Counted from the stretch's first letter, positions 7,981 to 31,847 are shown. The stretch is DNA of 64,000 bases from an uncultured Thermoplasmata archaeon (GCA_963768855.1 CAVYJM010000011.1:352001-416000), one strand, 5' to 3'. Made by a program: numbers and translations. Notes: a model not told the origin generated them from the letters alone.

Positions 7981-8065
7981 CGCGATGGGCCCGATTTAGG
8001 GGTTGCGTCCTTACTATTGTCCGGATACGCATTTTCGGTTGGAGGAGCGAAAGCCGAAACCCTTA

Positions 8066-8875
8066 TCAGATGGGCCCTGCGCCGACGAGGTACGCGATCA
8101 GGAACCCAGCCACCGCGGACGCGATCCCGATCGCGACCATCTCGAGGCCGCTGCGGGCCGGCCGCCCGACCGTGCTCGTGGCCTTGTACCAGCCGATCAG
8201 GAACAGGGCGACCGCGGCGACCAGGACGGACGCGAGCATCCCGGTCAGGATGTCCCCCGGGAAGACCAGAAAGGGGAGGAGGGGGATGACTGATCCGAAG
8301 ATCGCCGCGAAGCCCACCAGGAACGCGCTGTTCCGCGCCTGGCGCTTTTCCACGGGCGTCAGGCCGAGCTCGTGGGCCATCATGAACTCGAGCCACGCCT
8401 TCGGGTTCGAGACGATGTCGTCCGTGACCTGCTCCAGCTTCGCGCCCTGGAACCCCCATTTCTCGAAGACCTCCCGCACCTCCTGCCGCTCGAGGTCGGG
8501 GAGCTCCCGCATCTCGCGCTCCTCCCGCTCCCGCTCCTTCAGGTAGTGGTCCCGCCGGGCAAGGGTCGTCGTGTAGGCGACGGCCCCCATGGAGATGGAC
8601 TCCGCGAACGTCGCGGCGAGCGCGCCCGCGACGACGATCCGGAACGGGTCGGCCAGTTGCTGCGCCAGGGCCTGCTGGTGCGCCGCGATCGCGATCCCGA
8701 GGATCACGCCGAGGACGTTCACGAGCCCGTCCTGGCTGCCGAGGATGAAATCGGACAGGAGTCCCGGCCGGGCGTGCTCCTCGCCCGCGGCCTCCTCTTC
8801 CTGCTTCCGCCAGAACGCCAACCGTGTCGACACCGGCCCACCGTGGGTCCCGAACCGGTCGGGTCTTTTAGCCAT
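8066..8875 (-). CDS. VIT1/CCC1 family Fe/Mn transporter (copy 2)
   Basis: C-terminal 269 aa of the long 8066..10078 ORF; DFILGSQDGLV, ESISMGAVAY, FMMAHELG. Confidence 0.9.
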   Translation of the reverse strand: MAKRPDRFGTHGGPVSTRLAFWRKQEEEAAGEEHARPGLLSDFILGSQDGLVNVLGVILGIAIAAHQQALAQQLADPFRIVVAGALAATFAESISMGAVAYTTTLARRDHYLKEREREEREMRELPDLERQEVREVFEKWGFQGAKLEQVTDDIVSNPKAWLEFMMAHELGLTPVEKRQARNSAFLVGFAAIFGSVIPLLPFLVFPGDILTGMLASVLVAAVALFLIGWYKATSTVGRPARSGLEMVAIGIASAVAGFLIAYLVGAGPI

Positions 8876-8959
8876 TGCGCTGGCCGCCCTCGGCGGACGG
8901 GGCGAAACCGAACCGGGTCGGGAAGGTATTTCAAGGAAACCTGAGATGCCGCGCCGGCC

Positions 8960-10294: not shown

Positions 10295-11257
10295 CTACTT
10301 CTTGATCTCCTGGCCGACGAGGGCGAAGTGCGCGAGCAAGGCCTCGATCTGGATCCGCTCGTTGCTGCCTTCGACGAGCCGGTAGTCCGTCTCGCCGATG
10401 CGGTCCAGGAGCCGCACCTTGATTTCGTCGGGCACGTTGAGGTCGAAGACGGACCGGTGCAGCTGGCGCACGACGTCCTCCCCGGAGACGCCGTACTCGA
10501 TGAGCAGCTTGTCGAGGACCTCGCGCGCCTTCAGGAACTCCCCGGCGAGGGCGCGCTCGACGATCTTCTTGACCTCCTCCGGGCGGATCGTGCTGGCCAC
10601 CTTGTACAGGGCGTCCGCGTCGATTGTCGAGCTCAGGGAGGCCGCGACCTGCAGCGAGTTCACCGCGCGCCGCATGTCCCCCTCGGAGATGTACACGAGG
10701 GCTTCCATGCCATCGTCCGTGATCTTCAGCTTCTCCGCCTTCGCGATTCGCGCCAGGTACGCCCGAATCGCCTCCGGCTTCAGCGGACGGAAGCGGAAGA
10801 CCGCGCACCGCGACTGGATCGGCTCGATGATCCGCGAGGAGTAATTCGCGGAGAGGATGAACCGCGAAGTCTTCGAGTACGTCTCCATCGTGCGACGCAG
10901 GGCCGCCTGGGCGTCCGCGGTCAGGTTGTCCGCCTCATCGAGGAAGAGCAATTTGAAGTCCGTGCCGCCGAGGGGCGCGAGGCGGGCGATCTCCTTGATC
11001 TTCGTTCGGACCGTGTCGATCCCGCGTTCATCCGACGCATTGAGCTCGTAGTAGTTCTGCCGCCAGGTCTCGCCGAACAGGTCGCGGGAGAGCGCCATGG
11101 CGCTCGTCGTCTTGCCCGTGCCCGCGGGTCCGGCAAACAGGAGGTGCGGCAGGTTCCGGGAATCGCGGTAGGCCTTGAGCCTCTCCACGATTTCGTCCTG
11201 ACCGACGATATCCTCGAGGGTCTTTGGTCGGTACTTCTCGACCCAGATCTCCTTCAT
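10295..11257 (-). CDS. rfcS: Replication factor C small subunit (no intein)
   Basis: WVEKYRP, GPAGTGKT, ELNASDERG, LDEAD, IQSRC, GDMRRAVN. Confidence 0.97.
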   Translation of the reverse strand: MKEIWVEKYRPKTLEDIVGQDEIVERLKAYRDSRNLPHLLFAGPAGTGKTTSAMALSRDLFGETWRQNYYELNASDERGIDTVRTKIKEIARLAPLGGTDFKLLFLDEADNLTADAQAALRRTMETYSKTSRFILSANYSSRIIEPIQSRCAVFRFRPLKPEAIRAYLARIAKAEKLKITDDGMEALVYISEGDMRRAVNSLQVAASLSSTIDADALYKVASTIRPEEVKKIVERALAGEFLKAREVLDKLLIEYGVSGEDVVRQLHRSVFDLNVPDEIKVRLLDRIGETDYRLVEGSNERIQIEALLAHFALVGQEIKK

Positions 11258-11469: not shown

Positions 11470-12306
11470 ATGAAGATCCTGATCGCGGACGACGATGAGC
11501 TGCTGCGGGAGCTCTTGGCGGAGTTCCTTCGGGACCACGGCCACTCGGTCGATCTCGCGAACGATGGGACCGAGGCCCTCGAACGTCTGCGCACAGGCTC
11601 GTACGAGGTTGCGTTCCTCGACTACGCCATGCCTGGCATGTCCGGAATGGAGGTCATCCGCGCCGCGCGCGAGGCGGTTCCGCAAACGGCCTGCGTGATG
11701 ATGACCGGGCACACGAGCGTCACGACGGCCGTGGAGGCGATCAAGTCCGGAGCGAGTGACTTCGTCGCAAAGCCGCTCGAACCAGAGGCGATCGACCGCG
11801 TCCTGGAGAGCGTGAAGACGGCCACCCGAGCGCGGGAGGCGGCCGGGGTACGCTCCCGCGCGAGCGGTCTCTCCCGCCAGCCCGAGATTCGCGCCGCCTT
11901 CCTCACCGACCACGCAGGCCTCCTCATCGCCTCCCGGGTGGACCCGGAAGAGGGCATGGTGGACGGGGATCTCTTCAGCGCGACGCTCGACGTCATCCAG
12001 AACTTCATGCGCACTTCCTTCCCGGTGCTCCGCGGCCGCTCCCTGTCGGCCATCCACCAGGGCGACTGCACCCTCGTGCTCGAGCCCGGCGACCAGGCGC
12101 TCCTCACGGTCCTCGTCCAGGGGCGGGAGACCGAGTCCCTACGGCGTCGGATGCGGAAGGTCCTGCGGGACTTCGAGGTCCAGAACGAAGGGCGACTCCA
12201 AGCCGGTCTCGTCCACACGGACGCGGTCCGTGGAGCGGAGGAGCTGATGTCGAGGATCATGGTCAGCGGCGATTCGCACTCCGCCCGGCCACCGCGCGCC
12301 CCCTAG
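11470..12306 (+). CDS. Response regulator receiver (REC) fused to a longin-like output domain
   Basis: ILIADDD, FLDYAMPGMSG, MMTG, FVAKP intact; C-terminal DLFSATLDVIQNFMRTSFP domain shared with 21208 and 22388 genes. Confidence 0.88.
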   Translation: MKILIADDDELLRELLAEFLRDHGHSVDLANDGTEALERLRTGSYEVAFLDYAMPGMSGMEVIRAAREAVPQTACVMMTGHTSVTTAVEAIKSGASDFVAKPLEPEAIDRVLESVKTATRAREAAGVRSRASGLSRQPEIRAAFLTDHAGLLIASRVDPEEGMVDGDLFSATLDVIQNFMRTSFPVLRGRSLSAIHQGDCTLVLEPGDQALLTVLVQGRETESLRRRMRKVLRDFEVQNEGRLQAGLVHTDAVRGAEELMSRIMVSGDSHSARPPRAP

Positions 12307-15903: not shown

Positions 15904-17202
15904 TCAGCGGTGCAGCGCCATCGTCGCGGCGCGTGAGCGACCGACGGACGCGATGTCGACGCGAACCTTGAGCGCCGACTCCAGGTACGCCAGGTAGCGG
16001 CGCACCGGGGGCGGGAGCGCCCGCGAGCCCTTCTTCGCGATTCGGATCCAATCATCCTCAGGGAGTTCGGGCCAGCCCTTGAAGTCGCGGTACACGGGTT
16101 CGGCCTCCGCGAGGACCTTCGTCGAGGCGGGGAACTCCTTCACGGTCGTCCCGTGGTGGCGGTACGCCGTGCAGACCCGGATCCGGTCGAGACCGCCGAG
16201 CACGTCGAGCTTGGTCACCGCGAGACCCGTGAGCCCGTTCACCCGCACGGCCGCGCGGAGCATGACGAGGTCGATCCATCCGACCCGCCGCGGCCGATGC
16301 GTCGTCGTCCCGTACTCGCCTCCCCCGGTCTCTCGGAGATGGGTGGCCACGTCATCCTGTTGTTCCGTGGGAAAGGGCCCCGCGCCGACGCGGGAGGTGA
16401 ACGCCTTCGCGACGCCGAGGATCGTGTCGAGGTATCGGGGGGAGACGCCCGCGCCGGTCGCCGCCGCCCCCGCGGTACAGTTGCTCGAGGTGCCGTACGG
16501 GTAGATGCCGTGGTCGATGCAGAGGAGCGTCCCCTGGGCGCCCTCGAAGAGGACCCGCTTGCGCCGCTTCAGCATCCCGTCCAGGAGCACGGAGGTGTCC
16601 GTGACGAAGGGCGCGAGCCTCTTGCCGTACAGCGCGTACTCCGTGTAGATCGCCTCGAGGTCGAGGACGTCCGTGCCGCCGTAGGCCTGGATGAGCCGCT
16701 GCTTGATCGGGACGACGAGGGAGAGCCTCTCGCGCAGGGCGTCCGGATCCACGAGGTCGCACATCCGCAGGCCCCACTTGCCCACCTTGTCCTCGAACAC
16801 GGGCGCGATCCCGCGGCGCGTGCTCCCCGCGGCGAGGCTGCCCTTGAGGCCCTCCTCGAGCCCGTCGAGGATCTTGTGGTACGGCATGACGACGTGCGCG
16901 CGGTCGGAGATGCGGAGGTTCTTCGCCGGATGCCCGCGCGCCTCGACCTCGTCGATCTCCGCGAGGAGCTGCCCCGGTTCCACGACGACGCCGCCCGCGA
17001 TCACGTTCAGGGTGCGGGGTCGCAGGATCCCGGACGGCATGAGGTGGAACGCGTAGAGCTCGTCGCCCACCTGGACCGTGTGCCCGGCGTTCGCTCCGCC
17101 CTGAAAGCGAACCACGACGTCGGCCCGCTCCCCGAGGAAGTCGATGATCTTCCCCTTGCCTTCGTCCCCGAATTGGCAGCCCAAGACTACCGTGGCGGGC
17201 AT
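15904..17202 (-). CDS. purA: Adenylosuccinate synthetase
   Basis: QFGDEGKGK, GGANAGHT, EGAQG, RVGAGPFPTE, GTTTHRPRRVGW, TKLDVL. Confidence 0.97.
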   Translation of the reverse strand: MPATVVLGCQFGDEGKGKIIDFLGERADVVVRFQGGANAGHTVQVGDELYAFHLMPSGILRPRTLNVIAGGVVVEPGQLLAEIDEVEARGHPAKNLRISDRAHVVMPYHKILDGLEEGLKGSLAAGSTRRGIAPVFEDKVGKWGLRMCDLVDPDALRERLSLVVPIKQRLIQAYGGTDVLDLEAIYTEYALYGKRLAPFVTDTSVLLDGMLKRRKRVLFEGAQGTLLCIDHGIYPYGTSSNCTAGAAATGAGVSPRYLDTILGVAKAFTSRVGAGPFPTEQQDDVATHLRETGGGEYGTTTHRPRRVGWIDLVMLRAAVRVNGLTGLAVTKLDVLGGLDRIRVCTAYRHHGTTVKEFPASTKVLAEAEPVYRDFKGWPELPEDDWIRIAKKGSRALPPPVRRYLAYLESALKVRVDIASVGRSRAATMALHR

Positions 17203-17390
17203 GGCCGTCCTCGCCGAGAGGATGACCTGGGAGATAAGGAGCTTTCGCCCTCCATCGCCCGGCCGAGCGCCGCGGGTGAAAACGGAACATACTCCGGTCC
17301 GCCTACCGAATGTATTTATCCGCAGCAACCGTTCGCCGTCCCACACCGCTCGGGCCGGGGGGTGCGGGTTCCACGTCGGAGTACATACCA

Positions 17391-18098
17391 CTGGACAGTC
17401 GAGTGCCCACGCGCGTCGCCGGCCTCGATGACCGGCTCGGTGGCGGCATCCCCCGGGGTCACATCGTCCTCGTCGCCGGCCCGCCCGGATCGCTCAAGTC
17501 CACGTTCGCGTACCGGATCCTGTACCAGGAAGCGAAGGAGCACGGCGCCTCCTGCCTCTATCTCTCGATGGAGCAGAGCCGCGCCTCCCTCATCGCGCAG
17601 ATGACCTCCCTGGGGATGGACCCGGAGCAGGTCAAGGGCGTCCACATCATCGACGTCCGCGCCCTCCGCAAGGAGATCGAGGACCTCCGGGAACAGCCGC
17701 GGTGGCTCCTCGGCCTGCGCCGCCAGCTCGGCCGCTACAAGGAGGAGATGGGCTGCGACCTCCTCGCGATCGACAGCCTCGACGCGCTCTACGCGCTCAC
17801 GCCGATGGAGAACCCGCGCAACGAAGTGTTCCATTTCTTCGAGGAGTTGCGGGAGCTCCAGGCAACGACCTTCCTCGTCTCGGAGATGGGCCGCGACGAC
17901 GTGCGCCTCTCGCACTACGGCGTCGAGGAGTTCCTCGCGGACACGATCGTCCACCTGCGCCTCCGGGAGATCGACATCGGGATGAGCACCTCCGTCCGCC
18001 GATACATCGGCGTGGTGAAGATGCGCGGCGTGGACCACGACCTCGACTACTATCCGTTGCTCATTGAGGACGGCGGCTTCGAGATCGTGTCGGAGTGA
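17391..18098 (+). CDS. Single-domain KaiC/RAD55-like ATPase
   Basis: TRVAGLDDRLGGGIP, Walker A GPPGSLKS, Walker B LAIDSL, VVKMRG; start codon uncertain (17391 CTG or 17403 GTG). Confidence 0.88.
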   Translation: MDSRVPTRVAGLDDRLGGGIPRGHIVLVAGPPGSLKSTFAYRILYQEAKEHGASCLYLSMEQSRASLIAQMTSLGMDPEQVKGVHIIDVRALRKEIEDLREQPRWLLGLRRQLGRYKEEMGCDLLAIDSLDALYALTPMENPRNEVFHFFEELRELQATTFLVSEMGRDDVRLSHYGVEEFLADTIVHLRLREIDIGMSTSVRRYIGVVKMRGVDHDLDYYPLLIEDGGFEIVSE

Positions 18099-18119
18099 GA
18101 CCACGCGCGGGGTGGGACC

Positions 18120-19871
18120 GTGAACCTCCTCGGTGCGGCTCTCTCCCTGGCGGCCTTGGGCGTCAGCGCGTTCCTCGCGGTGTACGTCCTCGGGATGCAC
18201 CCGCGCTCGTTGCCGAGCCGCGCCTTCTTCGCCCTCATGATGACGTTCGTGTGGTGGGACGCCTGCGAGGCGGTCGAGCGGGCGCTGCCCGCCGGGACCA
18301 CGCCGTCCGCGGCCTTCCCGTGGACTCAGGGCGTGTGGCTCGGGATCAGCGCGGTGCCCGCCGCCCTGATGCAGCTCGCCCTCGTGTACCCGGAGCGGCG
18401 ACCCTGGTTCCGGCGCGAGTACCTCCCGCTGATCTACGCCCCCGTGGTCGGGTGGGCCTACCTGATCTTCGGGACCCGCCATCTGATCGCCGGTGTGGCG
18501 GAGGGGCCCCTCGGTCCCGGCGCAGTCGTCGGGGATAGCTACCTCCCCCTCGCTTCGGTCTACGCGGCCTGGTTCTACCTCAGCGTCGTCCTGTTCGCCG
18601 TGAACTGGTGGCGTCTGCGCGGGAGCAACCTCCGCCAGATGCAGGGCGTCGTCGTCCTCGGCCTGCTGGTCGGGTCCGTCCCCGCCGGCGTGACGGAGAT
18701 CTTCTGGCCCCTGATCGACGGATTCTCGGTCCGCCTGGGGCTGGGGTCCCTCTATACGCTCGTCTGGTCCATCTTCCTCGCGTTCGCCATCGCGCGCTAC
18801 CGCTACCTGGTCATCGAGCCCGTGACGGAGTCGCTCGGCGCGACGCGTGCCCGCCATCCGCTCTCCCGCGGGTTCAACTACCTCGTTCTGGAGCCGGGCC
18901 GGGCCGCGGGGATGGGGGCGTTCCGCGAGATCGTCTCGACGACGCCGGGGTTGTGCGTGACGGGCCTCGCGCCGGCTCGGATCGCCGAGCGGTTCGGGCT
19001 CGAGCGGACGCCCGTCCTGTGGATCACGACCGTCTCGGGCGAGGGGCGCACGGTCCGCCCGCAGGGGCTCGACTTCGAGCTCGTGCACACGGTCCTGAAG
19101 TTCCAGCGGGAGAACCCGGGGACCGCGATCCTCCTCGACGATCTGGACTACCTGGCCGCGGTGGACGGGTTCGAGGCGGTCGCCCGCTTCCTGAAGCGTG
19201 TCGCGAATCAGGCGAGTTCCTCGAGCGGCACGCTCATCGTGACGGCGGGCCACGGTACGTTCACGGCGGAGCAGGTCGCGGTGCTCGGCGGTTGCGTCGA
19301 CCATGTCCTCGACATCCCCGAGACCTCGAACGGGACGCTCGCCCCTTCGCGGGGTCACGCCCTCCTCTTCGTGCCGCAACAGGACGTCGGGGGCGTCCTC
19401 GCCCTCGTCGGCGCCAGCCGCGGCCTGATCGTGACCACGGAGCACCCCGCGAAGGCCCGCCGCCGGCTCGGAGAAGGCTTCGACATCCTCTGGATCACGG
19501 AGCATCCGGAGGCAGGGATCCTCTGCGCGCGACCGACGGCGCTCGACACGGAAGCCCGCCGCGCCATCAGCAATCACCTTTCCGCCCATCCGGGATCGGC
19601 CGTCGTCCTAGCGGGGCTCGAGCAGCTGTCCCTCTTCGCGGACTTCCCCGCCCTCCTGTCCTTCGTGAAGGACACGGTCGACGCGGCGTCCCTCCGGGGA
19701 AGCCAGGTCATCGCCGCGGTCAGTCCGAACGGGCTCCCCGCCCGGGAGGTCGCGATGCTCGCCCGCCGCTTGGATGTTCCCGCGGGCTCTTTTGTCAGGG
19801 GTTCTCCGGCTGGAGGGCTGTCCACAGCCGTTCCTGGAAGTCGAACTCCGATTCGAGGACCCGTTTCATGA
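18120..19871 (+). CDS. 7TM sensor (HisKA_7TM-like) fused to two DUF835 (inactive KaiC-like) domains
   Basis: Seven hydrophobic helices ending AIARYRYLVIEP; then PGLCVT..P, PVLWIT, ILLDDLDYL and a second copy ILWITE, VVLAGLEQL. Confidence 0.85.
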   Translation: MNLLGAALSLAALGVSAFLAVYVLGMHPRSLPSRAFFALMMTFVWWDACEAVERALPAGTTPSAAFPWTQGVWLGISAVPAALMQLALVYPERRPWFRREYLPLIYAPVVGWAYLIFGTRHLIAGVAEGPLGPGAVVGDSYLPLASVYAAWFYLSVVLFAVNWWRLRGSNLRQMQGVVVLGLLVGSVPAGVTEIFWPLIDGFSVRLGLGSLYTLVWSIFLAFAIARYRYLVIEPVTESLGATRARHPLSRGFNYLVLEPGRAAGMGAFREIVSTTPGLCVTGLAPARIAERFGLERTPVLWITTVSGEGRTVRPQGLDFELVHTVLKFQRENPGTAILLDDLDYLAAVDGFEAVARFLKRVANQASSSSGTLIVTAGHGTFTAEQVAVLGGCVDHVLDIPETSNGTLAPSRGHALLFVPQQDVGGVLALVGASRGLIVTTEHPAKARRRLGEGFDILWITEHPEAGILCARPTALDTEARRAISNHLSAHPGSAVVLAGLEQLSLFADFPALLSFVKDTVDAASLRGSQVIAAVSPNGLPAREVAMLARRLDVPAGSFVRGSPAGGLSTAVPGSRTPIRGPVS

Positions 19872-20022
19872 AGAGGACGATCTGACCCTGCGGGTCGAGG
19901 CCGTTCCGGGCGCAGTACTCGCGGAAGCCGTGGAGGACCTCCCCCTCGACGCGGATGTTGTACTGCACCTTGGCTTTCCTCGGCGGGGGCGATCCTCGGG
20001 GCGCCACGGCCCTCCGAATCAC
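19795..20022 (-). CDS. Small ribbon-helix-helix (CopG/Arc-like) DNA-binding protein
   Basis: VQYNIRV (ribbon), EGEVLHGFREYCARNG (helix), DPQGQIVLFMKRVL (helix); GTG start; overlaps the 3' end of the DUF835 gene. Confidence 0.7.
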   Translation of the reverse strand: MIRRAVAPRGSPPPRKAKVQYNIRVEGEVLHGFREYCARNGLDPQGQIVLFMKRVLESEFDFQERLWTALQPENP

Positions 20023-20030
20023 ACCGCCTC

Positions 20031-20099
20031 TATATCTACATTCTGTAGCATTTGCTATCTTTTTGTTCAAATCGTAGCCATTAAGTAAGTGATAATCAC
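20031..20099. promoter_or_regulatory. AT-rich divergent promoter region with short palindromes
   Basis: CTACA-ttc-TGTAG (20036-48), TAGCA-tt-TGCTA (20046-57), TTAAGTAA box (20081-88) followed directly by GTGAT-a-ATCAC (20089-99). Confidence 0.6.
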
Positions 20100-20134
20100 A
20101 TCTGGGAACGAGTGGGAGAGGAGGAGACCATCGG

Positions 20135-21196
20135 ATGACCGAGGCGACCCCCGCCCGGAACCGGCCGGCGACCCCCGAGGAACCAGGACTGGAACCCCCT
20201 GATTCGACGGTATCCGGCTCCACCGACGCCGACTTGCAGGCGGACCTGCTTGAGTCGCTCGTCGAGTCGGCGGACTACGTGGACGTCCGGAAACCACTCC
20301 CGGCCCGGAGTGGAGGGGGCCTGCTACTGGCCACCCCCGAGGCGATTCGGGACGCCTTCGTCACCGCATGGGAGGGCCTCTCCCATTCTCTCCATCTGGA
20401 GATCAGCGCGGCGCGCGCGCTCGACGGCGTGAGGGACCTCGTGCTCTACGACATCCCGGATGGGACCCGCAGCACGCTCTCCGTGCCCGCGGCGACGGAC
20501 GTCGAGACGGACGCCGGGCTGTATTGCCTCGCGCTCGTGCACACGCTCGCGTCGCTCGGAGCGGCGAGGACCGTCCTGCTCACGCACACGGTCTACAATC
20601 GCGAGCGCGGGCCCGAGGACACGAAGCGCTTCCTCGAGATCATGGCCCACGGCGTCGAACCCTTCCGCGGGTACACCCGGCGGCACAAGATCCGCGTGCA
20701 CCTCCACGGGATTCACGAGGGCTACGAACTCGGCCCCCTCCTCTCGAAGGCCTTCCCCGTCCCTGCGGCCCCCAAGTTCGATGCCCATTTCCTCCTGGAG
20801 TACGAGGAGGAATGGTTCCTGACCCCGCAGGGTCGCGCCCTGCTGGAGATGCTCCCGGACATCGACGTCGTCGTGCGCCACACGAAGCTCCAGGTGAGCG
20901 GCGGCTGGATCCCGATGAAGATGCGCAAGTCCGCGTACGTGTACTCCCAGAACGGGAGCCTGAACTCGAACTGGTCCTACGACGAGTACGCCTCGATGGT
21001 CGCCGTGGCCTACCTGGCCAAGGTCCTGCACTCCGGCGAGGCCCTGAGCAAGAAGTACGTCTCGATCGACGAGATCAAGGAGCGCTACCAGCAGCGGGAG
21101 ATGCGGCTCCAGACACGGGTCGTGCGGCTCAGGGAGAAACCGCGGAAGCTCTTCGTCGTCGGCTCCGCGACCGGCCTCATCCAGGTCTACGCCTGA
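20135..21196 (+). CDS. Divergent cis-prenyltransferase-fold protein (Rv3378c/UppS-like)
   Basis: YDIPDGTR, TVLLTHTVYNRERG, RRHKIRVHLHG, PDIDVVVR line up in order and spacing with cis-PT motifs. Confidence 0.7.
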   Translation: MTEATPARNRPATPEEPGLEPPDSTVSGSTDADLQADLLESLVESADYVDVRKPLPARSGGGLLLATPEAIRDAFVTAWEGLSHSLHLEISAARALDGVRDLVLYDIPDGTRSTLSVPAATDVETDAGLYCLALVHTLASLGAARTVLLTHTVYNRERGPEDTKRFLEIMAHGVEPFRGYTRRHKIRVHLHGIHEGYELGPLLSKAFPVPAAPKFDAHFLLEYEEEWFLTPQGRALLEMLPDIDVVVRHTKLQVSGGWIPMKMRKSAYVYSQNGSLNSNWSYDEYASMVAVAYLAKVLHSGEALSKKYVSIDEIKERYQQREMRLQTRVVRLREKPRKLFVVGSATGLIQVYA

Positions 21197-21207
21197 GGCT
21201 GGCGCGG

Positions 21208-22326
21208 TCACGAGGCGGCCAGCAGGGCAGTGAGCAGGTCGTCGACGCCCCGGGCGTCTTTCGCCATGCCCCGCCAGTTGCCCAGCGCCTCCGCGTTCTC
21301 CTCTTCGAATTTCTCGACGGCCTCGATGACCAGCCGACGGAGCTGGTCGTTCTCCTCCCCGTCGAGGACGAGGGTGAGGCAGGCATGCCGTCCGCGCTCC
21401 ATGAGGAGCGTGTAGTTGCCATGGCGGATGGACTTGAGCCACTTCCCTCGCAGGGTCGGGAACGACGTGCGCATGAAGTTCGAGATCACGTCGAGCGTCG
21501 CGCTGAACGAGTCCGCGTCGATCATGCGTTCTTCCGGCTGGATTCTTGACCCGATCAGCGTGCCGTCGCTGAAGGTGAGGAAGGCGCCCTTCACATCGTA
21601 GGTCGAAGCCTTCTTCCGCCGGAGGGCGTCGTTCAGCCTCCGGCTGGCGGACGGGCTCGTCGCAAAGAAGATCAGGAATCCGGGGACGGCGAGAAAGGTC
21701 GAGAACAACGGAGGCTGGCCCGGGGAGTCCTCGAGGCCGAGCACCGCGTTCGAGAACGTGCCCGCCAGGAGGGCGGCGACGAAGCCAACGAGGATCGCCT
21801 CGATCCGATGCGCGAGTTTGGGACTCTGGCCGTGGACTTCGAAGACCGTCCGCCCGATTTGGGCCAGAGCGACCAGCCAGCACGCGGCAACAAACAGGAG
21901 CCACGGAAGATACCAATCCAGGTTGTACTGGGGGACCCGCGGGACCGGGCCCGGCGGGAGGGGCGGGAATCCGGCGAACATGTGTGTCGGGAACGAGACG
22001 ATGAAGAACGCGGCGGGGACGAAGACCAGGAGCGACACACGGCGGAACCGGCCGTGGAACGCCATCCCATAGAGGAGCAGGAACACGCTCCCCACGGTGA
22101 GGCAGGTCAGGGAGACGCTGGCCTCGAGCGTCAGGTCCGCACCTGGGGGCATGTTGAAGAAGATCGCATCGCCCAGGGCGTACCCTCCCGTCAGCGTGCA
22201 GAGGAGGACGAAGAACAACTCGGTCCACGTCCGGTACCGCTCCTGATACGTGAGGTACCCCGCCAGGGAGAACCAGATCCCCGCACTGACCAGGGGGGCC
22301 CAGAACAGGAAGTCGTACGCGGACAT
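21208..22326 (-). CDS. 7TM sensor fused to C-terminal longin-like domain (copy B)
   Basis: Seven TM helices starting MSAYDFLFW; C-terminal DSFSATLDVISNFMRTSFP domain. Confidence 0.85.
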   Translation of the reverse strand: MSAYDFLFWAPLVSAGIWFSLAGYLTYQERYRTWTELFFVLLCTLTGGYALGDAIFFNMPPGADLTLEASVSLTCLTVGSVFLLLYGMAFHGRFRRVSLLVFVPAAFFIVSFPTHMFAGFPPLPPGPVPRVPQYNLDWYLPWLLFVAACWLVALAQIGRTVFEVHGQSPKLAHRIEAILVGFVAALLAGTFSNAVLGLEDSPGQPPLFSTFLAVPGFLIFFATSPSASRRLNDALRRKKASTYDVKGAFLTFSDGTLIGSRIQPEERMIDADSFSATLDVISNFMRTSFPTLRGKWLKSIRHGNYTLLMERGRHACLTLVLDGEENDQLRRLVIEAVEKFEEENAEALGNWRGMAKDARGVDDLLTALLAAS

Positions 22327-22387
22327 GCGGGTTCCTCGATTCTTCAGTCCCCGTTGTGTCTTAAGCATTTAGTGTTCGAGTTCGGCC

Positions 22388-23527
22388 TCATGTCTGCTCG
22401 AGGAGGGAGGTGAGCAGCCCGTCCGTCCCGATCGCCTCGGACGGCATGCCTCTCCAGTCCGCGAGGACGGGCTGGTTGTCCCGCTCGTACCCCAGGAGGA
22501 GATCGCGCATGTGCCGGCGCAACTGGTCGTTCTCCTCTCCTTGTAGGATCACGGTCAGGTAGGCGTACCGGCCGCGTTCCATGACGAGCGTGTAGTCCCC
22601 GTGTTTGATCGCGCTCAGCGAACCGCGCAGGGTCGGGAAGGAGGTGCGCATGAAGTTCTGGATCACGTCGAGCGTCGCGCTGAACAGGTCCTGGTCGATG
22701 ACCTTCTCCCCGGGTCGGACCTTCGCGCCGATCAGGGTGCCGTCCGTGAAGATCACGAAGGCCGCCTTGATGTTGTAGCGGCTTGCCTTCCACCGCCGCA
22801 CCGCAACGGAGAACCGCTCCGTGCTCAGAGGCGACAGGGTCACGACCGAGACGATTCCCGGGAGGACGAGCCCGGTGGAGAAGAGCGGGAGGAACTGGTA
22901 ATTCCCGAGCCCGCGCGTCACGTTCGTCAGCCCTCCGAGGGCCAGGGCGAGGAGGGTCGAGACGAGCAGGCCGAGCATCCGGCGGCGGAGCTTCGTCGTC
23001 TGGTCCGCCACCTCCCGATAGGTTCGCAGGAGGAAGTACGCGGCGAGGCCGGCGTAGGCCACCACGCCCACCACCCAAGTGATGAACACGGTCTTGTCCC
23101 AGGAGCCGAGCCAGGGCGGCCCGAACAGCGCGCCGGGCGACGAGTCGAGGGGCTGGATCATGCCCAGGTTCGGGACGAGACCCGCCCACACGAGCGCGAT
23201 GAGGCCGACCGCGGGCACGAACGCGAGCAGGTACCCGGTCCGCATCCTCGTGTAGAAGACGAGGGAGAAGAGGAAGATGAAGCAGACACTGAGGGTGAGG
23301 ACGCTGAAGCCAAGCAGGGCGGCGGTTCTGGCTTGCATCTGGTCCGGCGAAGTGAAGAAGAGGACATCGGCAAAGGCGTACGCCCCGACGAAAATGCAGC
23401 CGGCGAGGAAGAACACCTCGGTCCACGTACGATAGCGGTCGCGATAGACCTGGTAGAGGGCGAGGCCCCACCACACGCCGACCGTGGCGAGGGGCAACCA
23501 CTGCTGGCCGGGGATGGGGAGGGCCAT
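22388..23527 (-). CDS. 7TM sensor fused to C-terminal longin-like domain (copy C)
   Basis: Seven TM helices; shares YRTWTE.FF with copy B; C-terminal DLFSATLDVIQNFMRTSFP domain. Confidence 0.85.
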   Translation of the reverse strand: MALPIPGQQWLPLATVGVWWGLALYQVYRDRYRTWTEVFFLAGCIFVGAYAFADVLFFTSPDQMQARTAALLGFSVLTLSVCFIFLFSLVFYTRMRTGYLLAFVPAVGLIALVWAGLVPNLGMIQPLDSSPGALFGPPWLGSWDKTVFITWVVGVVAYAGLAAYFLLRTYREVADQTTKLRRRMLGLLVSTLLALALGGLTNVTRGLGNYQFLPLFSTGLVLPGIVSVVTLSPLSTERFSVAVRRWKASRYNIKAAFVIFTDGTLIGAKVRPGEKVIDQDLFSATLDVIQNFMRTSFPTLRGSLSAIKHGDYTLVMERGRYAYLTVILQGEENDQLRRHMRDLLLGYERDNQPVLADWRGMPSEAIGTDGLLTSLLEQT

Positions 23528-23628
23528 GGAAACCAAGGGGTAGTTTCCCAACCTTCGCAAGGTATGTTAAAGCCTTCGACGTGATTTTCCGTCGCAAGAA
23601 GAGCCCGGGGCGCGCAACGGCTAAGGCG

Positions 23629-24665
23629 GTGGGTCCGATGCCCCGTCCACGAAGGTCCGGATCGCGGGCGCGGGTCCCGCAGGCCTCAGCGCGGCCTGCG
23701 TCCTCGCCGAGGGGGGAGCTGAGGTGGAGGTCTTCGATCGAGGACCCGCCCTCGGGTCGAAAGAGGCCGATTTCTCCGCAGGTCTGCGGAACTACGCCGG
23801 CCGGGACGCCCTCGAGGAACTTGCGTCCTACGGCGTGCCGGTCCGTCCGTTCGCCACCGCGCAGAAAACGATCCGGCATTCGCCGCGGTTCGCGAACGTG
23901 CTCCATGGCCCCTCCTACTTCATCCTGGCCCGCGGCGCGGGGCCGACCACGGTCGAGCGCCAGCTCTTCGACCGGGCCGTGCGGGCGGGAGCTCGGGTGC
24001 GGTTCGGGACGGCGAAGGATCCTCAGGACGTGGACATCGTGGCCGCGGGACGGCCCACCGGTCCGCCGTCCCTCCTCGGCGTGGGGTTCACGTTCTCGCG
24101 GGAGGGGAGCCCGATGGACGACACGACGCTCTACGCCCTCCTCGATAACTCGATCGCGCCCGCCGGCTACTTCGCCCTCGCCCCGGGGCCTGAGGCTTGC
24201 ACGCTCTACGCCGTCTCCTGGACGGATCTGGATCTGGAGAGCATGCGGTCGCGCGTCGAGGCCTCGCTCCAGATTCCCTGGGTGAGGGAGCTCGTCGGAT
24301 CGAGCCGCCGGCTTCAGCGGATCGAGTGCGGCGCCTACTTCGCGCGGGACCCGATCGCCGATGCGGTGGCCCCGTCGGGCGCGCTCCGGGTCGGAGAGGC
24401 CGCCGGCTTCCTCGATGCGATCGGCGGCTATGGCGTCCGGTACGCGTTGATCACGGGAGCCCTCGCGGCGAAGTCGGTCCTCGACCGGTCCGACTATCCT
24501 GCCCTCCTGCGGCAGGCGTTCGGCACTGAGTTCGAGGAAGCCTTCGCGTTCAGGCAGCAGTTGAACCGCGCGACGAACGAGGACATGGACCGCCTCGTGG
24601 CGTCCATGGGGCCGGAGATGGATCTGGCCGCGTACCAACAGCACCGGTCCTCCCGACTCCTGTGA
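23629..24665 (+). CDS. Geranylgeranyl-reductase-like FAD oxidoreductase 1; no in-frame start upstream of the GxGxxG motif (probable 1-nt indel)
   Basis: KVRIAGAGPAGLSAA at 23652, VGEAAGFLDAIGGYGVRYAL; in-frame TAA at 23622 with no ATG/GTG/TTG before the Rossmann motif. Confidence 0.75.
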
Positions 24666-24706
24666 CCCGCGCAAGCTTATTCTGGGGATCCCACCATCGT
24701 GCCGCG

Positions 24707-25726
24707 ATGGCCGATTCGGTCCGCGTCGCAGGGGCCGGCCTTGGAGGTCTGACCGCGGCACTCGTGCTCGCGCGAGCGGGGCGGACGGTCGAGGTCTTCG
24801 ACCCGAAGACGGCGCTGCTCCCCAGCTCGGGCCCGCACACGGAAGGCATCCGGAACTACCGCAAGTTGGACGCTCTCGAGGAACTGCGGTCCGTGGGCTT
24901 CGATTTTTCGCCGTTCTCGACCGTCCAGCGGACGATTCGCGCCGCGCCGCACGCCCGAACCGAGCTCCTCGGCCCCGCGCACTACCTGTTCCAGCGGGGC
25001 CGTGAACCCGAATCCGTCGATCAGGTCCTCTTCCGTCGGGCCCAGGAGGCCGGGGTCCGGTTCCACTTCGGCGCCTCCCTCGGCGCCGATGATGCAGACA
25101 TCGTCGCGACCGGTCCTCCGAAGGACGAGACCCAGATCCTCGGCGCGGGCTACACGTTCTCGGCCACGGGTAGCTCCCTGACGCGCGACGTCGCATGCGC
25201 CCTCTTCGACAACGAGGTCGCACCAGCCGGATACCTGGCCATCACGCCCGGCATCGACTACCACTCGATCTACAGCGTCTCCTGGTCCGAGTTCGACTAC
25301 GCGCGGCTCCTCGCTCGCGTCCACAAGGCGTTCGAGGTCCCCTGGGTCAAGGCGATTCTCGGGACGAGCACCTGGGTCGGCAAGATCCACGGCCGCGCAC
25401 ATTTCGTCCGAGATCCGATCGCGGACGCGGAGCGGGGCGGGGTGCTGTATGTCGGCGAGGCCGGAGGCTTCCAGGACGCCGTTGCGGGCTTCGGCTTCCG
25501 GTACGCGGCGATGACGGGCGCGCTCGCCGCACGGTCCATCCTGGAGGGCCGGGACTATCGTGGACTCCTGCGCCAGGCCTTCGGCAACGAGTTCGTGGAG
25601 TCCTGGGTCTTCCGGGAGAAGCTGAACGCCGCGACGAACGAGGACTATGACCGGATGTTCGCGGCCCTTGGCCCCGAGATCACCCTCGAGGCGTACGTCG
25701 CCCAGCGTGGCTCCCGCGGGTTCTGA
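24707..25726 (+). CDS. Geranylgeranyl-reductase-like FAD oxidoreductase 2 (tandem paralog)
   Basis: VAGAGLGGLTAA, VGEAGGFQDAVAGFGFRYAAMTG; clearly similar to the upstream copy. Confidence 0.85.
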   Translation: MADSVRVAGAGLGGLTAALVLARAGRTVEVFDPKTALLPSSGPHTEGIRNYRKLDALEELRSVGFDFSPFSTVQRTIRAAPHARTELLGPAHYLFQRGREPESVDQVLFRRAQEAGVRFHFGASLGADDADIVATGPPKDETQILGAGYTFSATGSSLTRDVACALFDNEVAPAGYLAITPGIDYHSIYSVSWSEFDYARLLARVHKAFEVPWVKAILGTSTWVGKIHGRAHFVRDPIADAERGGVLYVGEAGGFQDAVAGFGFRYAAMTGALAARSILEGRDYRGLLRQAFGNEFVESWVFREKLNAATNEDYDRMFAALGPEITLEAYVAQRGSRGF

Positions 25727-25728
25727 AC

Positions 25729-27489
25729 TCATGCGCCGCCGGGCTTCACGGCCTTGAGCTGTCCGCGGTACATCTCGAGCAGCTCTTTCTGGGAGGTCGC
25801 GTCCTCGGGCTTCTTGTCGTCGCGCCACTTGCCGGTGAACCGGGGGAACCGGACGGCAAGGCCCGCGCCCTTGCGGACCGCATCGCGGGCGCACGTGTGG
25901 ACCGGGCTGACCGTGATCTCCGCACCCTTGACCTCGAGGACGAACCGCGGCTCGAACCAGACGTCGGGTGTGAGCGCGGAATCCACGCGGGCGTGCCGGT
26001 GCGGGACGACCGCGTCCTGGAATCGGTCCTTCAAGCCGAACAGGGTCTCGTCGTCGAAGCCCGTGCCGAGCTTGCAGGTCGTGCGGAACACGTCCGCCTG
26101 GTCATCGTAGGCGGCCATGAGCAACGCACCGTACGTGCCGGCGCGCTTCCCCCGCCCCGCGAACGCGCCGACCGCCACGAGATCGATCGTGTCGCTCAGC
26201 TCCGTGCTGTATTCCTTCTTGAACTTGATCCACTGAAAGCCGCGGGCGCCCGCGTCGTACGTCGAGGAGAGGGCCTTCGCCATGAGGCCCTCGCACCCCG
26301 CCTGGAGGGCCTCGTCGAAGAACGCCTCCGCGGCCTTGACGTCCGCGGTGACCTTGTACGTCGCGCGCCGCACGCGCTCGTTCTCCTTCAGGATCCCGTC
26401 CAGGGCCTTCCTCCGCTCGACATACGTACGAATCGTGAGGTCCTCTCCCTCCAGGAAGAGGCAGTCGAAGGTGAACAGGGTCACGGGGAACTCCTGCGAC
26501 ATCCGGTCCACGTCCGTCTTCCGTCCGCGACGGCGGCTGACCTCCTGGAACGGGAGGAACTCGCCCGTGTTTGCGTCGACGGGGACCGCCTCGCCCTCGA
26601 CGATCGCCTCTTTCGCGCGGATCGCGGTCCGCAGCCCTTCGACAATCTCGGGGAACTGCCCCGTGATGTTTTCGAGCTCCCGCGAGAAGAGCCGGATCTT
26701 GTCGTTCGAGATGTGCGCCTGGCACCGCAGGCCGTCGTACTTGTACTCGAGCGCGGGCTCCCCCATCCTCTCCATGATTTCCTGCAACGTGGGCAGCCGC
26801 TCCGCGAGCATGGAGCGGATTGGGCGGAAGAGCTGGAGATGGATTGCATCGGCGCCCGCGAGCCCGTTCTCGGCGAGGGCGCGGGCCACCTCGCCCAGGT
26901 CGGACGACACGTTGTACGCGCGCTCGACGCGGTCCCGCTCCTCCTTCGTCGCGAAGGTGGCCGCAAGGGCGTCCACGATCGTCATGTCCGCGACCCCGAG
27001 GCGCATCTTGCCCACGACGATCCGCACGAGGTAGCGCGCCTCCTTCGGTTCCGCGTCAGTCAGGAGCTCCGCGAGGAGCCGCAGCTTCTTCTCCTGCGAA
27101 CCGGATCCACCGGTGGTCGCGATCTCCTTCAGGTTCTCGTAGACCTTCGCGATGGTCAGCGGCTCGGAGGTGAGCGAGGTCTGCTTCTTCCCGCGGAGGC
27201 GCTCCTCTGCCACGAGCCCGAGATCGCCGGAGGCCTTCCAGGCCTTCTCGATGTCCTCGTCCCGGTCCCCGGTGGCCTGAGCGATTGCGCGGATCGCGAG
27301 CTTCTCCGCGACGCCGAGCTCGATCCCTGCGTAGCCCGGATAGACCCGGCCCTGCGTGAGGTAGACGACCGGTTCCAGATCGGGCTTGGGCACCTGCCTG
27401 AACAGGCTGACGAGGAGGTCGGTCATCTCGAGGCGCTTCGTCGTGGCCTCGAGCTTCTCGTACGCGTCGACCAGGGTCGCGTACTGCAT
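25729..27489 (-). CDS. lig: ATP-dependent DNA ligase (archaeal)
   Basis: EYKYDGLR (adenylation Lys), EGEAV, CEGLMAK, WIKFK, RFPRF, RDDK. Confidence 0.97.
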   Translation of the reverse strand: MQYATLVDAYEKLEATTKRLEMTDLLVSLFRQVPKPDLEPVVYLTQGRVYPGYAGIELGVAEKLAIRAIAQATGDRDEDIEKAWKASGDLGLVAEERLRGKKQTSLTSEPLTIAKVYENLKEIATTGGSGSQEKKLRLLAELLTDAEPKEARYLVRIVVGKMRLGVADMTIVDALAATFATKEERDRVERAYNVSSDLGEVARALAENGLAGADAIHLQLFRPIRSMLAERLPTLQEIMERMGEPALEYKYDGLRCQAHISNDKIRLFSRELENITGQFPEIVEGLRTAIRAKEAIVEGEAVPVDANTGEFLPFQEVSRRRGRKTDVDRMSQEFPVTLFTFDCLFLEGEDLTIRTYVERRKALDGILKENERVRRATYKVTADVKAAEAFFDEALQAGCEGLMAKALSSTYDAGARGFQWIKFKKEYSTELSDTIDLVAVGAFAGRGKRAGTYGALLMAAYDDQADVFRTTCKLGTGFDDETLFGLKDRFQDAVVPHRHARVDSALTPDVWFEPRFVLEVKGAEITVSPVHTCARDAVRKGAGLAVRFPRFTGKWRDDKKPEDATSQKELLEMYRGQLKAVKPGGA

Positions 27490-29697: not shown

Positions 29698-31629
29698 TCA
29701 GGGACCCGCGACCTCGGTCGGCAGGAGGAGGGAGAACGAGGCGCCCCGCCCCGGCTCGGACGCCAGTTCGATCCGCCCGCCGTGGGCCTCGGCGACGGCC
29801 TTCACGAAGAGCAGTCCGAGCCCGACCCCTTCGCCGTGCGGCTTCGTCGTGAAGAACGGCTGGAAGATCCGGTCCCGGTCCTGCGGCGAGATCCCCTTCC
29901 CCGTGTCCCGCACCGTGACGCACGCCCACTCCCCCTCGCGCCGCAGGGACACCGTCACGGTCCCCTTGTCCGTCGCCTGGTACGCGTTCTTGATCAGGTT
30001 GCCGACCGCCTGGGAGATCTTCAGCGCGTCGACGGTCATCGGGAGCGGCGCGTCGCCGACGTCGAGGTCAAGCGCCACGGCCGGTTTCCGGTAGGCGGCC
30101 ACTTGCTCCGCGGCGGCCCGAAGCAGGGTCGCGAGGTCCGCCTCCTGCCGGCGGATCTCCGTGGACCGGGTGAAGGTCATGATTTCCTCGATGATGCGGG
30201 CCGCGAGGCGCCGCTGGGCGTCGATCCGGTCGAGGCGCTCCCTCGTCGCATCCTCCTGGGTCTGGCGCCGGATGCTCGCGGTCAGCAGGGAGATGTTCGT
30301 CAGGGGCGTATTCAGCTCGTGGGCCACGTACGACGCGGTGCGGCCGATCGACGCGAGGCGCTCCGTCTCGAGGAGGGCCCGTTGAGCCTCCCGAAGGCTC
30401 GTGACGTCCACGAGGGTCGTGAGGATCGTCGGCTCGTCGGCGAGGGTCATCGGCTCGACGAACACGAGCGCGGTCCACGTCCGGCCCGACCTCGTCCGGA
30501 ACCGTTCCTCGACGCCGCGAACGCTCTCGCCCCGTCGCACGGGCTCCAAGATCCGGTCGCGCTGCGCCGCGTCGGACCAGATTTCGAGTTCGGGCGACGG
30601 TCGTCCGAGGACCTCGTACGGGGCGTACTCGCAGGCGCGGAGGAAGCTCGCGTTCGCCTCGATCACCCTGCCGTCCGCGAGGCGCGTGACCGCAGCGGGC
30701 ACCGGGCTGTTGTGGAAAGCCTTCGCGAACCGCTCCTCGGCCTTCCTCCGCTCGCTCTCGAGCCGCTCCGACTCGAGGAACTGTCCCATCCGATCCCCCA
30801 GGTCGGCCATGAGCTCGAGGAGTTGGGGATCCGGCTCGCGGGTGCTCCGGCTGAAGAAGACCATCACGCCGAGGACCCGCGGTCCGCGCCCGGTGATCGG
30901 GAAGGAGAGTCCCTGCCGCAGGCCGAGGTCCGCGCCGGATTGGCCGCGGGCGAAGTGCGTCCGGGGTGTCAGCTCCTCGAGCCACTCGGGGCGTCCGGTC
31001 GCCCAGGTGGTCCCCGGGATCCCGACCCCGCGCGGGACGGCGACGGTCCGGCTCGCGGCCTCGAACTCGGCGGAAGGGAACCCCGGGACGTGCCAGGCCG
31101 CCTGCCACCGCAGGCTCGTGCCCTCGGCGGACGCGATCCACAGTTCCCCGTACTCCCAGCTCGCTTCCTCGCAGACCGCCTGGAGGAGGCGCGGGATTGC
31201 CTCCCGAGCCGGGGCCGAGTCGTTCAGGACCCGGGTCACCGCGAACTCGGTCCGGAGGCGGCGCTCGAGCCGCAGCCGCTCCGTGATGTCGTGGCACAGC
31301 ACGAGGCGCGCGCGGTGGTCGTCGAAGTCGATCTCGCTCGCCAGGACCTCGACGTCGATGATGCTCCCGTCGCGCTTGAGATGCCTCCAGATCCCGATCG
31401 TCGTGGTGCCGCTGTCGAGCCGCCTGACCTCGTCCATGAGCGCGGGGATGTCCTCGGGCGGCCGGATGTCCTTGATCGTCATCCGGAGGAACTCGTTCCT
31501 CGAGTAGCCGTAGTGGGTGACCGCCGCGTCGTTGACGGCGAGGAAGTAGAGGGACTTGACATCGAACACCCACATCGGGAGCGGGTTCTTCTCGAACAGC
31601 AGGCGGTACGACTCCCTGATGAAGTGCAT
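29698..31629 (-). CDS. Cytoplasmic sensor histidine kinase PAS-GAF-PAS-HisKA-HATPase
   Basis: Two PAS domains (AVNDAAVTHYGY; EANASFLRACEY), GAF, H-box VAHELNTPL, N-box NLIKNA, G1 DTGKG, F and G2 GVGLGL. Confidence 0.93.
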   Translation of the reverse strand: MHFIRESYRLLFEKNPLPMWVFDVKSLYFLAVNDAAVTHYGYSRNEFLRMTIKDIRPPEDIPALMDEVRRLDSGTTTIGIWRHLKRDGSIIDVEVLASEIDFDDHRARLVLCHDITERLRLERRLRTEFAVTRVLNDSAPAREAIPRLLQAVCEEASWEYGELWIASAEGTSLRWQAAWHVPGFPSAEFEAASRTVAVPRGVGIPGTTWATGRPEWLEELTPRTHFARGQSGADLGLRQGLSFPITGRGPRVLGVMVFFSRSTREPDPQLLELMADLGDRMGQFLESERLESERRKAEERFAKAFHNSPVPAAVTRLADGRVIEANASFLRACEYAPYEVLGRPSPELEIWSDAAQRDRILEPVRRGESVRGVEERFRTRSGRTWTALVFVEPMTLADEPTILTTLVDVTSLREAQRALLETERLASIGRTASYVAHELNTPLTNISLLTASIRRQTQEDATRERLDRIDAQRRLAARIIEEIMTFTRSTEIRRQEADLATLLRAAAEQVAAYRKPAVALDLDVGDAPLPMTVDALKISQAVGNLIKNAYQATDKGTVTVSLRREGEWACVTVRDTGKGISPQDRDRIFQPFFTTKPHGEGVGLGLLFVKAVAEAHGGRIELASEPGRGASFSLLLPTEVAGP

Positions 31630-31847
31630 CCGACCGTTCCGTGGGCTCTCGGCTTCCCGCCGTTGGCTCGGGAACTCATCGGATGGTATGGGCTCGTTGC
31701 CGGGCATTGGAAAGGGTCAGCCGACCGGCCGTGGCCGCATCGCGCCCGGGGATACCATCCCCCGCGCGCGTATTTCCCCTTTGTGCAGTCGGATAAGGCA
31801 AGCCTAAAGAGTCGGATGGGCTCGCCCCCCATCCCCGGGCCGGGGGA

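Follow-up and report, generated by a model that had tools for sequence, protein, structure and literature searches.

In the quorum-sensing systems cqsA-cqsS and luxM-luxN, the synthase of a hydrophobic molecule is encoded beside a polytopic membrane sensor, and in the membrane-fluidity circuit DesK-DesR-Des of Bacillus subtilis the sensor lies beside the lipid-modifying desaturase that it controls. Here we describe a locus that invites comparison with both, found in a 64,000-nucleotide stretch of DNA (hereafter the window) from an uncultured Thermoplasmata archaeon of wetland or soil (GCA_963768855.1, CAVYJM010000011.1:352001-416000). Between positions 17391 and 25726, a 353-residue protein of the cis-prenyltransferase superfamily, which we call X353, is encoded among membrane sensors with a seven-transmembrane (7TM) domain of, or related to, the HisKA_7TM family (PF16927). 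We consider it very probable, from comparative sequence evidence, that X353 and the HisKA_7TM sensors form one functional module. As in cqsA-cqsS and luxM-luxN, a biosynthetic enzyme stands beside a membrane sensor, which in a distant lineage is a histidine kinase, but the likeness is one of gene layout only: the enzyme class, the sensor domain and the chemistry (isoprenoid) are different, and the clade of the window uses DUF835 with KaiC and a longin-like domain as outputs, with no kinase. The locus resembles DesK-DesR-Des in that a membrane sensor is encoded beside a putative lipid enzyme, whereas the proteins differ throughout and the regulator is a predicted ribbon-helix-helix (RHH) protein rather than a response regulator.

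Signalling networks of KaiC and inactivated-KaiC (DUF835) proteins have been described in archaea (Makarova et al., 2017, as treated in Galperin et al., 2018; PMC5847659), and HisKA_7TM and DUF835 are catalogued as sensor and output domain, respectively, in that census (PMC5847659). The part of the census covered here names neither a ligand nor an enzyme partner for HisKA_7TM, and the sections of this literature covered here name no ligand for the KaiC/DUF835 network. As in the networks treated there, a KaiC-like gene lies directly upstream of the gene for a DUF835 protein in the window; unlike the pairs catalogued in that part of the census, this one comes with a particular enzyme and a particular predicted RHH protein that has a candidate operator. 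In two deep lineages, the locus would link both HisKA_7TM and KaiC/DUF835 with a single enzyme and with genes for isoprenoid tailoring, which suggests a concrete and testable class of ligand. The product of X353 could prove to be an undescribed lipid or signal of archaea.

The pairing of enzyme and sensor was followed through 47 X353-bearing loci from different species-level genomes, the denominators below being the loci with enough flank. Among these related loci, the RHH gene and the gene for the HisKA_7TM sensor with DUF835 output (7TM-DUF835) are kept in 35 of 37, the KaiC-like gene in 29 of 31, and one or two copies of a gene for a 7TM protein with a longin-like C-terminal domain (7TM-longin) in 34 of 36. 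The order KaiC, 7TM-DUF835, RHH, X353, flavoprotein on contig L070 is that of the window. The association recurs in a distant lineage with a guanine-plus-cytosine (GC) content of 36-38%, in which X353 is about 40% identical to the protein of the window. There the X353 homologue adjoins a HisKA_7TM-PAS-histidine kinase in all seven genomes (six genera), and four further contigs of this lineage all have a HisKA_7TM-DUF835 or HisKA_7TM-kinase gene beside X353 (11/11 in total). PF16927 is present in one to three copies per distant-lineage genome, one of which is always the neighbour of X353, and the 7TM domains are homologous between the lineages (sensor of the window versus the distant kinases: hhalign 99.2%, E = 6e-20). 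Downstream, the distant loci carry genes for a haloacid dehalogenase-type (HAD) hydrolase, B12-binding radical S-adenosylmethionine (SAM) enzymes and a short-chain dehydrogenase/reductase (SDR), and sometimes for a protein like geranylgeranyl reductase (GGR); in three of them (L058-L060) a GGR-like homologue 28-31% identical to those of the window follows X353. One distant relative, P0137, was left out of the neighbourhood comparison because its flank was too short.

Because the adjacency persists in the distant lineage while the output domain changes, and because the 7TM domains are homologous, X353 and the HisKA_7TM sensor are best regarded as the constant pair, with the output domain as the variable part. 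The grouping as a whole lies far beyond chance, since it is kept across about 45 species-level genomes and its core recurs in the distant lineage. A sequence-only reading of this stretch had proposed a locus for synthesis and sensing of an isoprenoid signal, with three 7TM sensors around a prenyltransferase-fold enzyme, an RHH regulator and two reductases, and had named synteny as a check. The check came out in favour of the link between enzyme and receptors, which co-occur in related genomes and again in the distant lineage with different sensor outputs; this link is evidently real and deeper than the window alone could show. Two elements of the proposed layout did not generalise: the 7TM-longin proteins are specific to this clade, and the reductases are no constant part of the module, as set out below.

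Several observations weigh against the module reading or the mechanism built on it. In the close clade, purA and the genes for DNA ligase and purB are syntenic as well, and conservation there proves little by itself. Three loci of the core family (L026, L045 and L057) have no sensor neighbour, and a partner common to L045 and L057 was sought and not found. Remoter X353-like proteins (about 27-31% identical) are encoded among housekeeping genes or beside UbiA, without sensors, and HisKA_7TM sensors occur without X353, as extra copies in genomes G397, G125 and G244 and in control genomes. In addition, the classical C-terminal motif that binds the diphosphate of isopentenyl diphosphate (IPP), Arg...Arg-x-Ser, cannot be aligned with confidence in X353, and the path from the sensors to the RHH protein is guesswork, because the Walker A motif of the KaiC-like protein is deviant. 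As a separate observation on L045 (a Methanocellales bin), its X353 homologue (9947-10872, 42% identical) is split by a frameshift into two overlapping frames, and an overlapping gene in front of it encodes a Cys-rich protein of 384 residues without a Pfam match.

X353 itself has no match in Pfam (E <= 0.01) or NCBIfam. Its family is tightly conserved, with about 100 invariant positions across 30 members at identities down to about 50%. The AlphaFold (AF2) model has a mean predicted local distance difference test (pLDDT) score of 71.8, with the N-terminal 62 residues predicted to be disordered. When this model was searched with Foldseek, all of the top 50 matches were cis-prenyltransferases, the best being MM_0014 (E = 1.6e-6), followed by matches that include MA1831, undecaprenyl/dolichyl diphosphate synthase (UPPS) and Rv3378c. 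VIA, which is independent of Foldseek, gave Z scores of 12.6-15.3 for ten cis-prenyltransferase representatives, compared with 5.7 for the next unrelated fold, and superposed most of the ten with a root-mean-square deviation of 3.0-3.7 over 181-226 residues. A profile built from close X353 homologues only (A1) found nothing in the PDB, and a profile of the family widened with distant relatives (A3) matched UPPS structures (E = 4e-5). Foldseek, VIA and the widened profile thus agree on the cis-prenyltransferase fold that had been proposed for the gene at 20135.

The best of these structural matches belong to non-canonical cis-prenyltransferases, a group comprising MM_0014 and MA1831 of Methanosarcina, the lavandulyl and cyclolavandulyl diphosphate synthases and Rv3378c of Mycobacterium tuberculosis, which show that this fold can catalyse head-to-middle condensation and can also serve transfer to acceptors other than IPP (PMC8131916). 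X353 shares with the MM_0014-type enzymes the Asp-Gly-x-Arg loop and the Thr/Asn pair of proton elimination, but is only 10-18% identical to the non-canonical enzymes and, unlike them, fails the PF01255 model and has the disordered N-terminus and an extra C-terminal helix-plus-sheet (residues 311-352); the classical C-terminal IPP-binding motif of known cis-prenyltransferases is not recognisable. We know of no report of a membrane-sensor neighbour for a non-canonical cis-prenyltransferase.

The N-terminal catalytic motifs can be followed more closely. The Asp-Gly-x-Arg loop of cis-prenyltransferases binds Mg2+ and the allylic diphosphate, and residues D109-G110-T111-R112 of X353, invariant in 34 family members, are aligned by A3 with the corresponding UPPS loop (IMDGNgRW). 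Likewise, the Ser/Thr-x-x-Asn-x-x-Arg motif serves proton elimination and IPP binding, and T152, N155 and R158 of X353, invariant in the 30-member alignment, are aligned by A3 with S-x-E-N-W-x-R of UPPS. Since this Thr/Asn pair corresponds to the proton-elimination residues of MM_0014, Thr63 and Asn66 (PMC8131916), X353 likely catalyses a condensation reaction. Further downstream, R248 and K251 are conserved within R-H-T-K-L-Q-V-S-G-G-W, a region that lies beyond the end of the profile alignment.

With UPPS, the canonical enzyme of PF01255, X353 has in common the superfamily, the fold and the key N-terminal catalytic motifs. It gives no match to PF01255 at the gathering threshold of 27 bits (the best distant relative, P0144, scores 21 bits), in contrast to two canonical PF01255 genes elsewhere in the genome, on another contig, that score 277-285 bits. 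X353 is by these scores a superfamily relative outside the curated family, and founds an unannotated clade within the cis-prenyltransferase superfamily. Its distribution is patchy (15 of 401 genomes sampled across the phylum). Because the two canonical genes are present elsewhere and X353 is confined to so few genomes, it is presumably not the housekeeping carrier-lipid synthase and need not be an ordinary carrier-lipid enzyme. When X353 (residues 63-353) was modelled in a complex with the longin-like domain of the 386-residue 7TM-longin protein, the prediction gave no support for an interaction, a result that counts neither way.

The sensor encoded upstream of X353 matches HisKA_7TM over residues 10-234, above the gathering threshold of 28.6 bits, followed by two DUF835 (inactivated-KaiC) domains, and it is the only PF16927 match in the genome of the window; the proposed 7TM protein with two DUF835 domains is thereby recovered, at 38.3 bits for PF16927 and 107.6 bits for the two DUF835 stretches. 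The KaiC-like protein encoded before it was described in the sequence-only reading as an ATPase. The domain assignment holds (PF06745, 157 bits), but the Walker A motif is not canonical: it reads GPPGSLKST, with Leu (or Met) replacing the Gly before Lys in all of about 35 orthologues, so that GxxxxGK[ST] is not matched. The protein may be a non-hydrolysing or otherwise unusual P-loop protein, and ATPase activity is uncertain. Because the start at 17310 overlaps purA, the real start may be near 17391.

Downstream of X353, on the opposite strand, lie the two 7TM-longin paralogues. The model of the 386-residue protein (pLDDT 81.8) has seven helices and a beta-beta-alpha-beta-beta-beta-alpha domain (residues 257-357). 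Neither of the two proteins matches PF16927 by itself, 7 of 26 family members do so (best E = 4.2e-5), and hhalign aligns their 7TM part with the kinase-type HisKA_7TM domain (92.7%, E = 4e-7). Pairwise BLAST between the 7TM-longin proteins and the DUF835 sensor was not significant, and the link is seen by profile comparison only; the 7TM-longin proteins are likely distant relatives of HisKA_7TM. In VIA, the helical part of the model matches G-protein-coupled receptors (GPCRs) at Z 14-17 over about 215 residues, a likeness that may reflect common helix packing only. Polar residues are conserved within transmembrane helices 2 and 6 (TM2 and TM6) of the 7TM domains. A retinal-like covalent chromophore was considered and set aside, the 7TM family having no invariant lysine.

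Foldseek matches of the C-terminal domain are weak and include zeta-COP, the VAMP7 longin domain, MglB and an archaeal roadblock protein (E = 6e-3 to 1.2e-2; target-normalised TM scores of 0.44-0.64), and Fuz_longin_1 matches two members of the 7TM-longin family at E = 0.015. The model, the PF16927 matches among family members and the weak longin/roadblock matches are in keeping with the description as 7TM-longin-like. The longin-like domain appears to be a shared output module of this genome, with about 12 copies. One of them, 44% identical over 128 residues to that of the 7TM-longin proteins, is fused to a receiver domain at 11470-12306 (+) in the window. A small GTPase might be the target of the longin-like domains in the 7TM-longin pair; none is encoded within the locus. 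The genome contains about 18-20 genes for Ras-superfamily small GTPases (PF00071, mostly 79-135 bits), at least one of which is a neighbour of a longin-type gene in the manner of MglA-MglB (G000:C6:749275-749769 beside C6:748779-749099), with a further example listed at C12:41751-42891 near C12:45304-45672. A large expansion of the longin-like output domain was seen in a 5.5-Mb Thermoplasmatota bin (G162, family f48), where the 7TM-longin profile has 24 matches, mostly to the longin part in large proteins (for example C134:185-1234 and C134:5564-6640). Two 7TM-longin genes of other loci are irregular, one with an internal duplication of about 25 residues (L012:4247-5440) and one with an in-frame stop (L033:11974-13107); assembly artefact or decay is possible in both.

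The small gene divergent from X353 lies on the minus strand, begins with GTG at 20007 and has no second copy in the genome. Its family alignment (A4) predicts an N-terminal beta-strand followed by two helices. BrnA_antitoxin matches 10 of 21 members (best E = 5.9e-5), with weaker matches to RHH_10 and Arc, all below the cut-offs; against the PDB, 2kel was found at E = 4.4e-4 and the Arc repressor at E = 0.16. This strand-helix-helix pattern and the weak matches to RHH families and structures agree with the earlier assignment as an RHH regulator. Between its start and that of X353 lies an AT-rich intergenic region of 127 bp, of which positions 20037-20078 hold TAC-N5-GTAGC, the palindrome GTAGCATTTGCTAT (20045-20058) and another GTAGC at 20074; all of the GTAGC elements fall between the two TATA-like boxes of the divergent promoter. 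Of 20 related intergenic regions, 9 contain the palindrome GTAGCATTTGCTAT, where shuffling predicts 0.09. GTAGC repeats occur in most of the related RHH-X353 intergenic regions, and the loci without the palindrome include some with tandem GTAGCA repeats. The 2.87-Mb genome has a single instance of the combined pattern. The conserved GTAGC elements, the uniqueness of the combined pattern and the single RHH gene fit a regulator that would control its own promoter and that of X353 through this candidate operator. At its other end, the RHH gene converges with the sensor gene, the 3' ends overlapping by 77 nucleotides (19795-19871), and the overlap is retained in most related loci.

The two flavoproteins at the far end of the locus score well below the curated family. 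The NCBIfam model TIGR02032 gives 42 bits for the gene at 24662 and 23.5 bits for the gene at 23625 (cut-off 158.8), the latter being reported as GG-red-SF at 23.5 bits together with a DGGPL reductase match at E = 2e-6; the product of the gene at 24662 matches the GGR structure 3oz2 at E = 0.009. A GxGxxG motif for binding flavin adenine dinucleotide (FAD) is encoded in both frames. With weak family scores and this motif in place, the reading as GGR-like flavoproteins stands, and both are by the curated cut-off similar to, rather than members of, the family. In the first of them, GAGPAG lies upstream of the first ATG, GTG or TTG codon (23724) in a frame that is open from 23625, ACG stands at 23649 where the paralogue has ATG, and the ATG at 23638 lies in another frame, off by one base. 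Contigs from related strains lack the in-frame start in the same way; decay with loss of the start codon, a non-canonical start or an undetected indel may account for this. Only 6 of 22 related X353 loci have a GGR-like gene, none was found anywhere in five X353 genomes without an adjacent copy, and the wider reductase family occurs in 111 of 401 genomes, mostly without X353. Their distribution indicates that the reductases are optional or accessory, contrary to the sequence-only reading, which had made them part of the synthesis pathway.

As a full mechanism, we tentatively suggest a sensor-controlled pathway for a specialised isoprenoid whose product is sensed, with the RHH protein setting the level of X353, a reading that falls a little short of probable. 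X353 would condense an allylic prenyl diphosphate with IPP or dimethylallyl diphosphate to yield an unusual prenyl diphosphate; we infer this substrate and product from the fold and motifs. Tailoring would be optional, by the GGR-like reductases in the window and by the B12-radical SAM enzymes, HAD phosphatase and SDR in the distant lineage. The lipophilic product or an intermediate would reside in the membrane, where the sensors encoded next to X353 would detect it with their HisKA_7TM domains, so that the product of the pathway would be the ligand of the sensors. In the clade of the window, DUF835 and the KaiC-like protein might then relay the signal to the RHH protein, whose binding to the GTAGC repeats that separate the two divergent promoters, its own and the X353 promoter, would set the level of the enzyme in a cell-autonomous feedback. 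The 7TM-longin paralogues would provide a second output, possibly to small GTPases. A signal of the quorum-sensing kind is only one of several readings of these data, and feedback control of a membrane lipid fits them equally well.

It is possible, though somewhat unlikely, that the sensors respond to something else (membrane thickness or fluidity, temperature, pH or redox state, for example) and switch on a lipid-modifying enzyme in the manner of DesK-DesR, the product changing the membrane without being a ligand. This would draw on the same neighbourhood evidence, the tailoring genes (GGR-like, B12-radical SAM and HAD) are of kinds that serve archaeal membrane and carrier lipids, and the PAS domains of the distant-lineage kinases could add further cues. 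However, the outputs vary between kinase, DUF835 and longin and only the 7TM domain stays constant as a partner, which suits a ligand tied to the enzyme, and three 7TM proteins for one enzyme would be lavish for a simple on-switch. The sequence-only reading went in the other direction, to an isoprenoid that is made by X353 (with the reductases), leaves the cell and is detected by neighbours through the 7TM receptors, like cqsA-cqsS or luxM-luxN and free of kinases in this clade. A synthase beside a membrane receptor in two deep lineages, several receptors with different outputs at one locus, and a local regulator with a genome-unique combined repeat at the synthase promoter, as autoinduction needs, are all in keeping with it. 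We nevertheless consider it unlikely, as the locus has no export gene, the reductases are optional, highly hydrophobic isoprenoids spread poorly between cells, and no receptor-only "listener" genomes were identified, although no systematic search for them was made. Its most specific form, an isoprenoid cell-to-cell circuit in which a cis-prenyltransferase-like synthase makes a lipophilic autoinducer and GPCR-like 7TM receptors give a kinase-free output via DUF835/KaiC to the RHH protein and via longin domains to Ras-like GTPases, is decidedly unlikely.

The conserved order of purA, DNA ligase and purB around the locus could also mean that there is no special link, X353 being a third, divergent polyprenyl synthase (of a dolichol-type carrier lipid) with signalling genes as mere neighbours in a frozen order. 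A cis-prenyltransferase, a GGR-like reductase and a phosphatase make up the enzyme set for saturated dolichyl phosphate, and KaiC genes (about 20), DUF835 loci (about 9) and longin-like domains (about 12) all abound in the genome. This is very unlikely all the same, given that the adjacency to a sensor recurs in an independent lineage with different flanks at 11 of 11 loci, that PF16927 has only one to three copies per genome, and that the RHH gene and its candidate operator are single-copy and lie at the X353 promoter; moreover, with two canonical PF01255 genes already in the genome and X353 in only 15 of 401 genomes, the latter is no housekeeping gene. Highly improbable, in our view, is that X353 makes a dedicated non-covalent isoprenoid cofactor for the 7TM sensors, comparable to retinal genes beside rhodopsin or to quinone-dependent sensors. 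The tight pairing of enzyme and 7TM protein, the GPCR- or rhodopsin-like helix arrangement and the conserved polar residues within TM2 and TM6 would agree with a cofactor, but the last helix has no invariant lysine for a Schiff base, PF16927 sensors are widespread without X353, and the likeness to GPCRs is perhaps common helix packing only. The sensor-controlled isoprenoid pathway with a sensed product remains the reading that we prefer.

The positions of the features are collected in Table 1. All of the parts listed in the sequence-only reading were found at the locus by gene calling, which used third-position GC content (0.86-0.92, in a window of about 68% GC), and by family searches.

Table 1. 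Features of the locus, with positions counted from the first nucleotide of the window (aa, amino acids).
Feature	Position	Strand	Basis
KaiC-like single-domain P-loop protein	17310..18098	+	PF06745, 157 bits
HisKA_7TM-DUF835-DUF835 membrane sensor, 583 aa	18120..19871	+	PF16927, 38.3 bits; PF05763, 107.6 bits
Predicted ribbon-helix-helix (RHH) regulator, 70 aa	19795..20007	-	strand-helix-helix alignment; weak RHH matches
Candidate RHH operator	20037..20078		GTAGC repeats and palindrome in divergent promoter
X353, predicted cis-prenyltransferase-superfamily protein, 353 aa	20135..21196	+	fold and profile
7TM-longin protein, 386 aa	21208..22368	-	structure model; profile comparison
7TM-longin paralogue, 390 aa	22388..23560	-	alignment (41% identical to the 386-aa protein)
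GGR-like flavoprotein	23625 or 23724..24665	+	weak NCBIfam matches; GAGPAG at 23664-23681
GGR-like flavoprotein, 354 aa (GTG 24662) or 339 aa (ATG 24707)	24662..25726	+	Rossmann; TIGR02032 below cut-off

The locus is bounded by purA (15904-17391, -) and a DNA ligase gene (25729-27489, -), and the flanking genes (RFC, TtuA-like, purA, DNA ligase and purB) are housekeeping genes or unrelated. Pfam annotation within it is limited to KaiC, HisKA_7TM, DUF835 and a Rossmann N-terminus. Homologues carry labels such as Thermoplasmata archaeon and RBG_16_68_12. The DNA of the locus was also found as contigs in wetland and freshwater-sediment metagenomes, either the same as the assembly or from a related strain; the listed sources include no RNA datasets. 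Elsewhere in the window, a soluble PAS-GAF-PAS histidine kinase is encoded at 29698-31707 (-), 4 kb downstream of the locus, and upstream, at 7201-10078 (-), there are two genes of the VIT family (iron or manganese transporters), one of them with an N-terminal extension of 440 residues.

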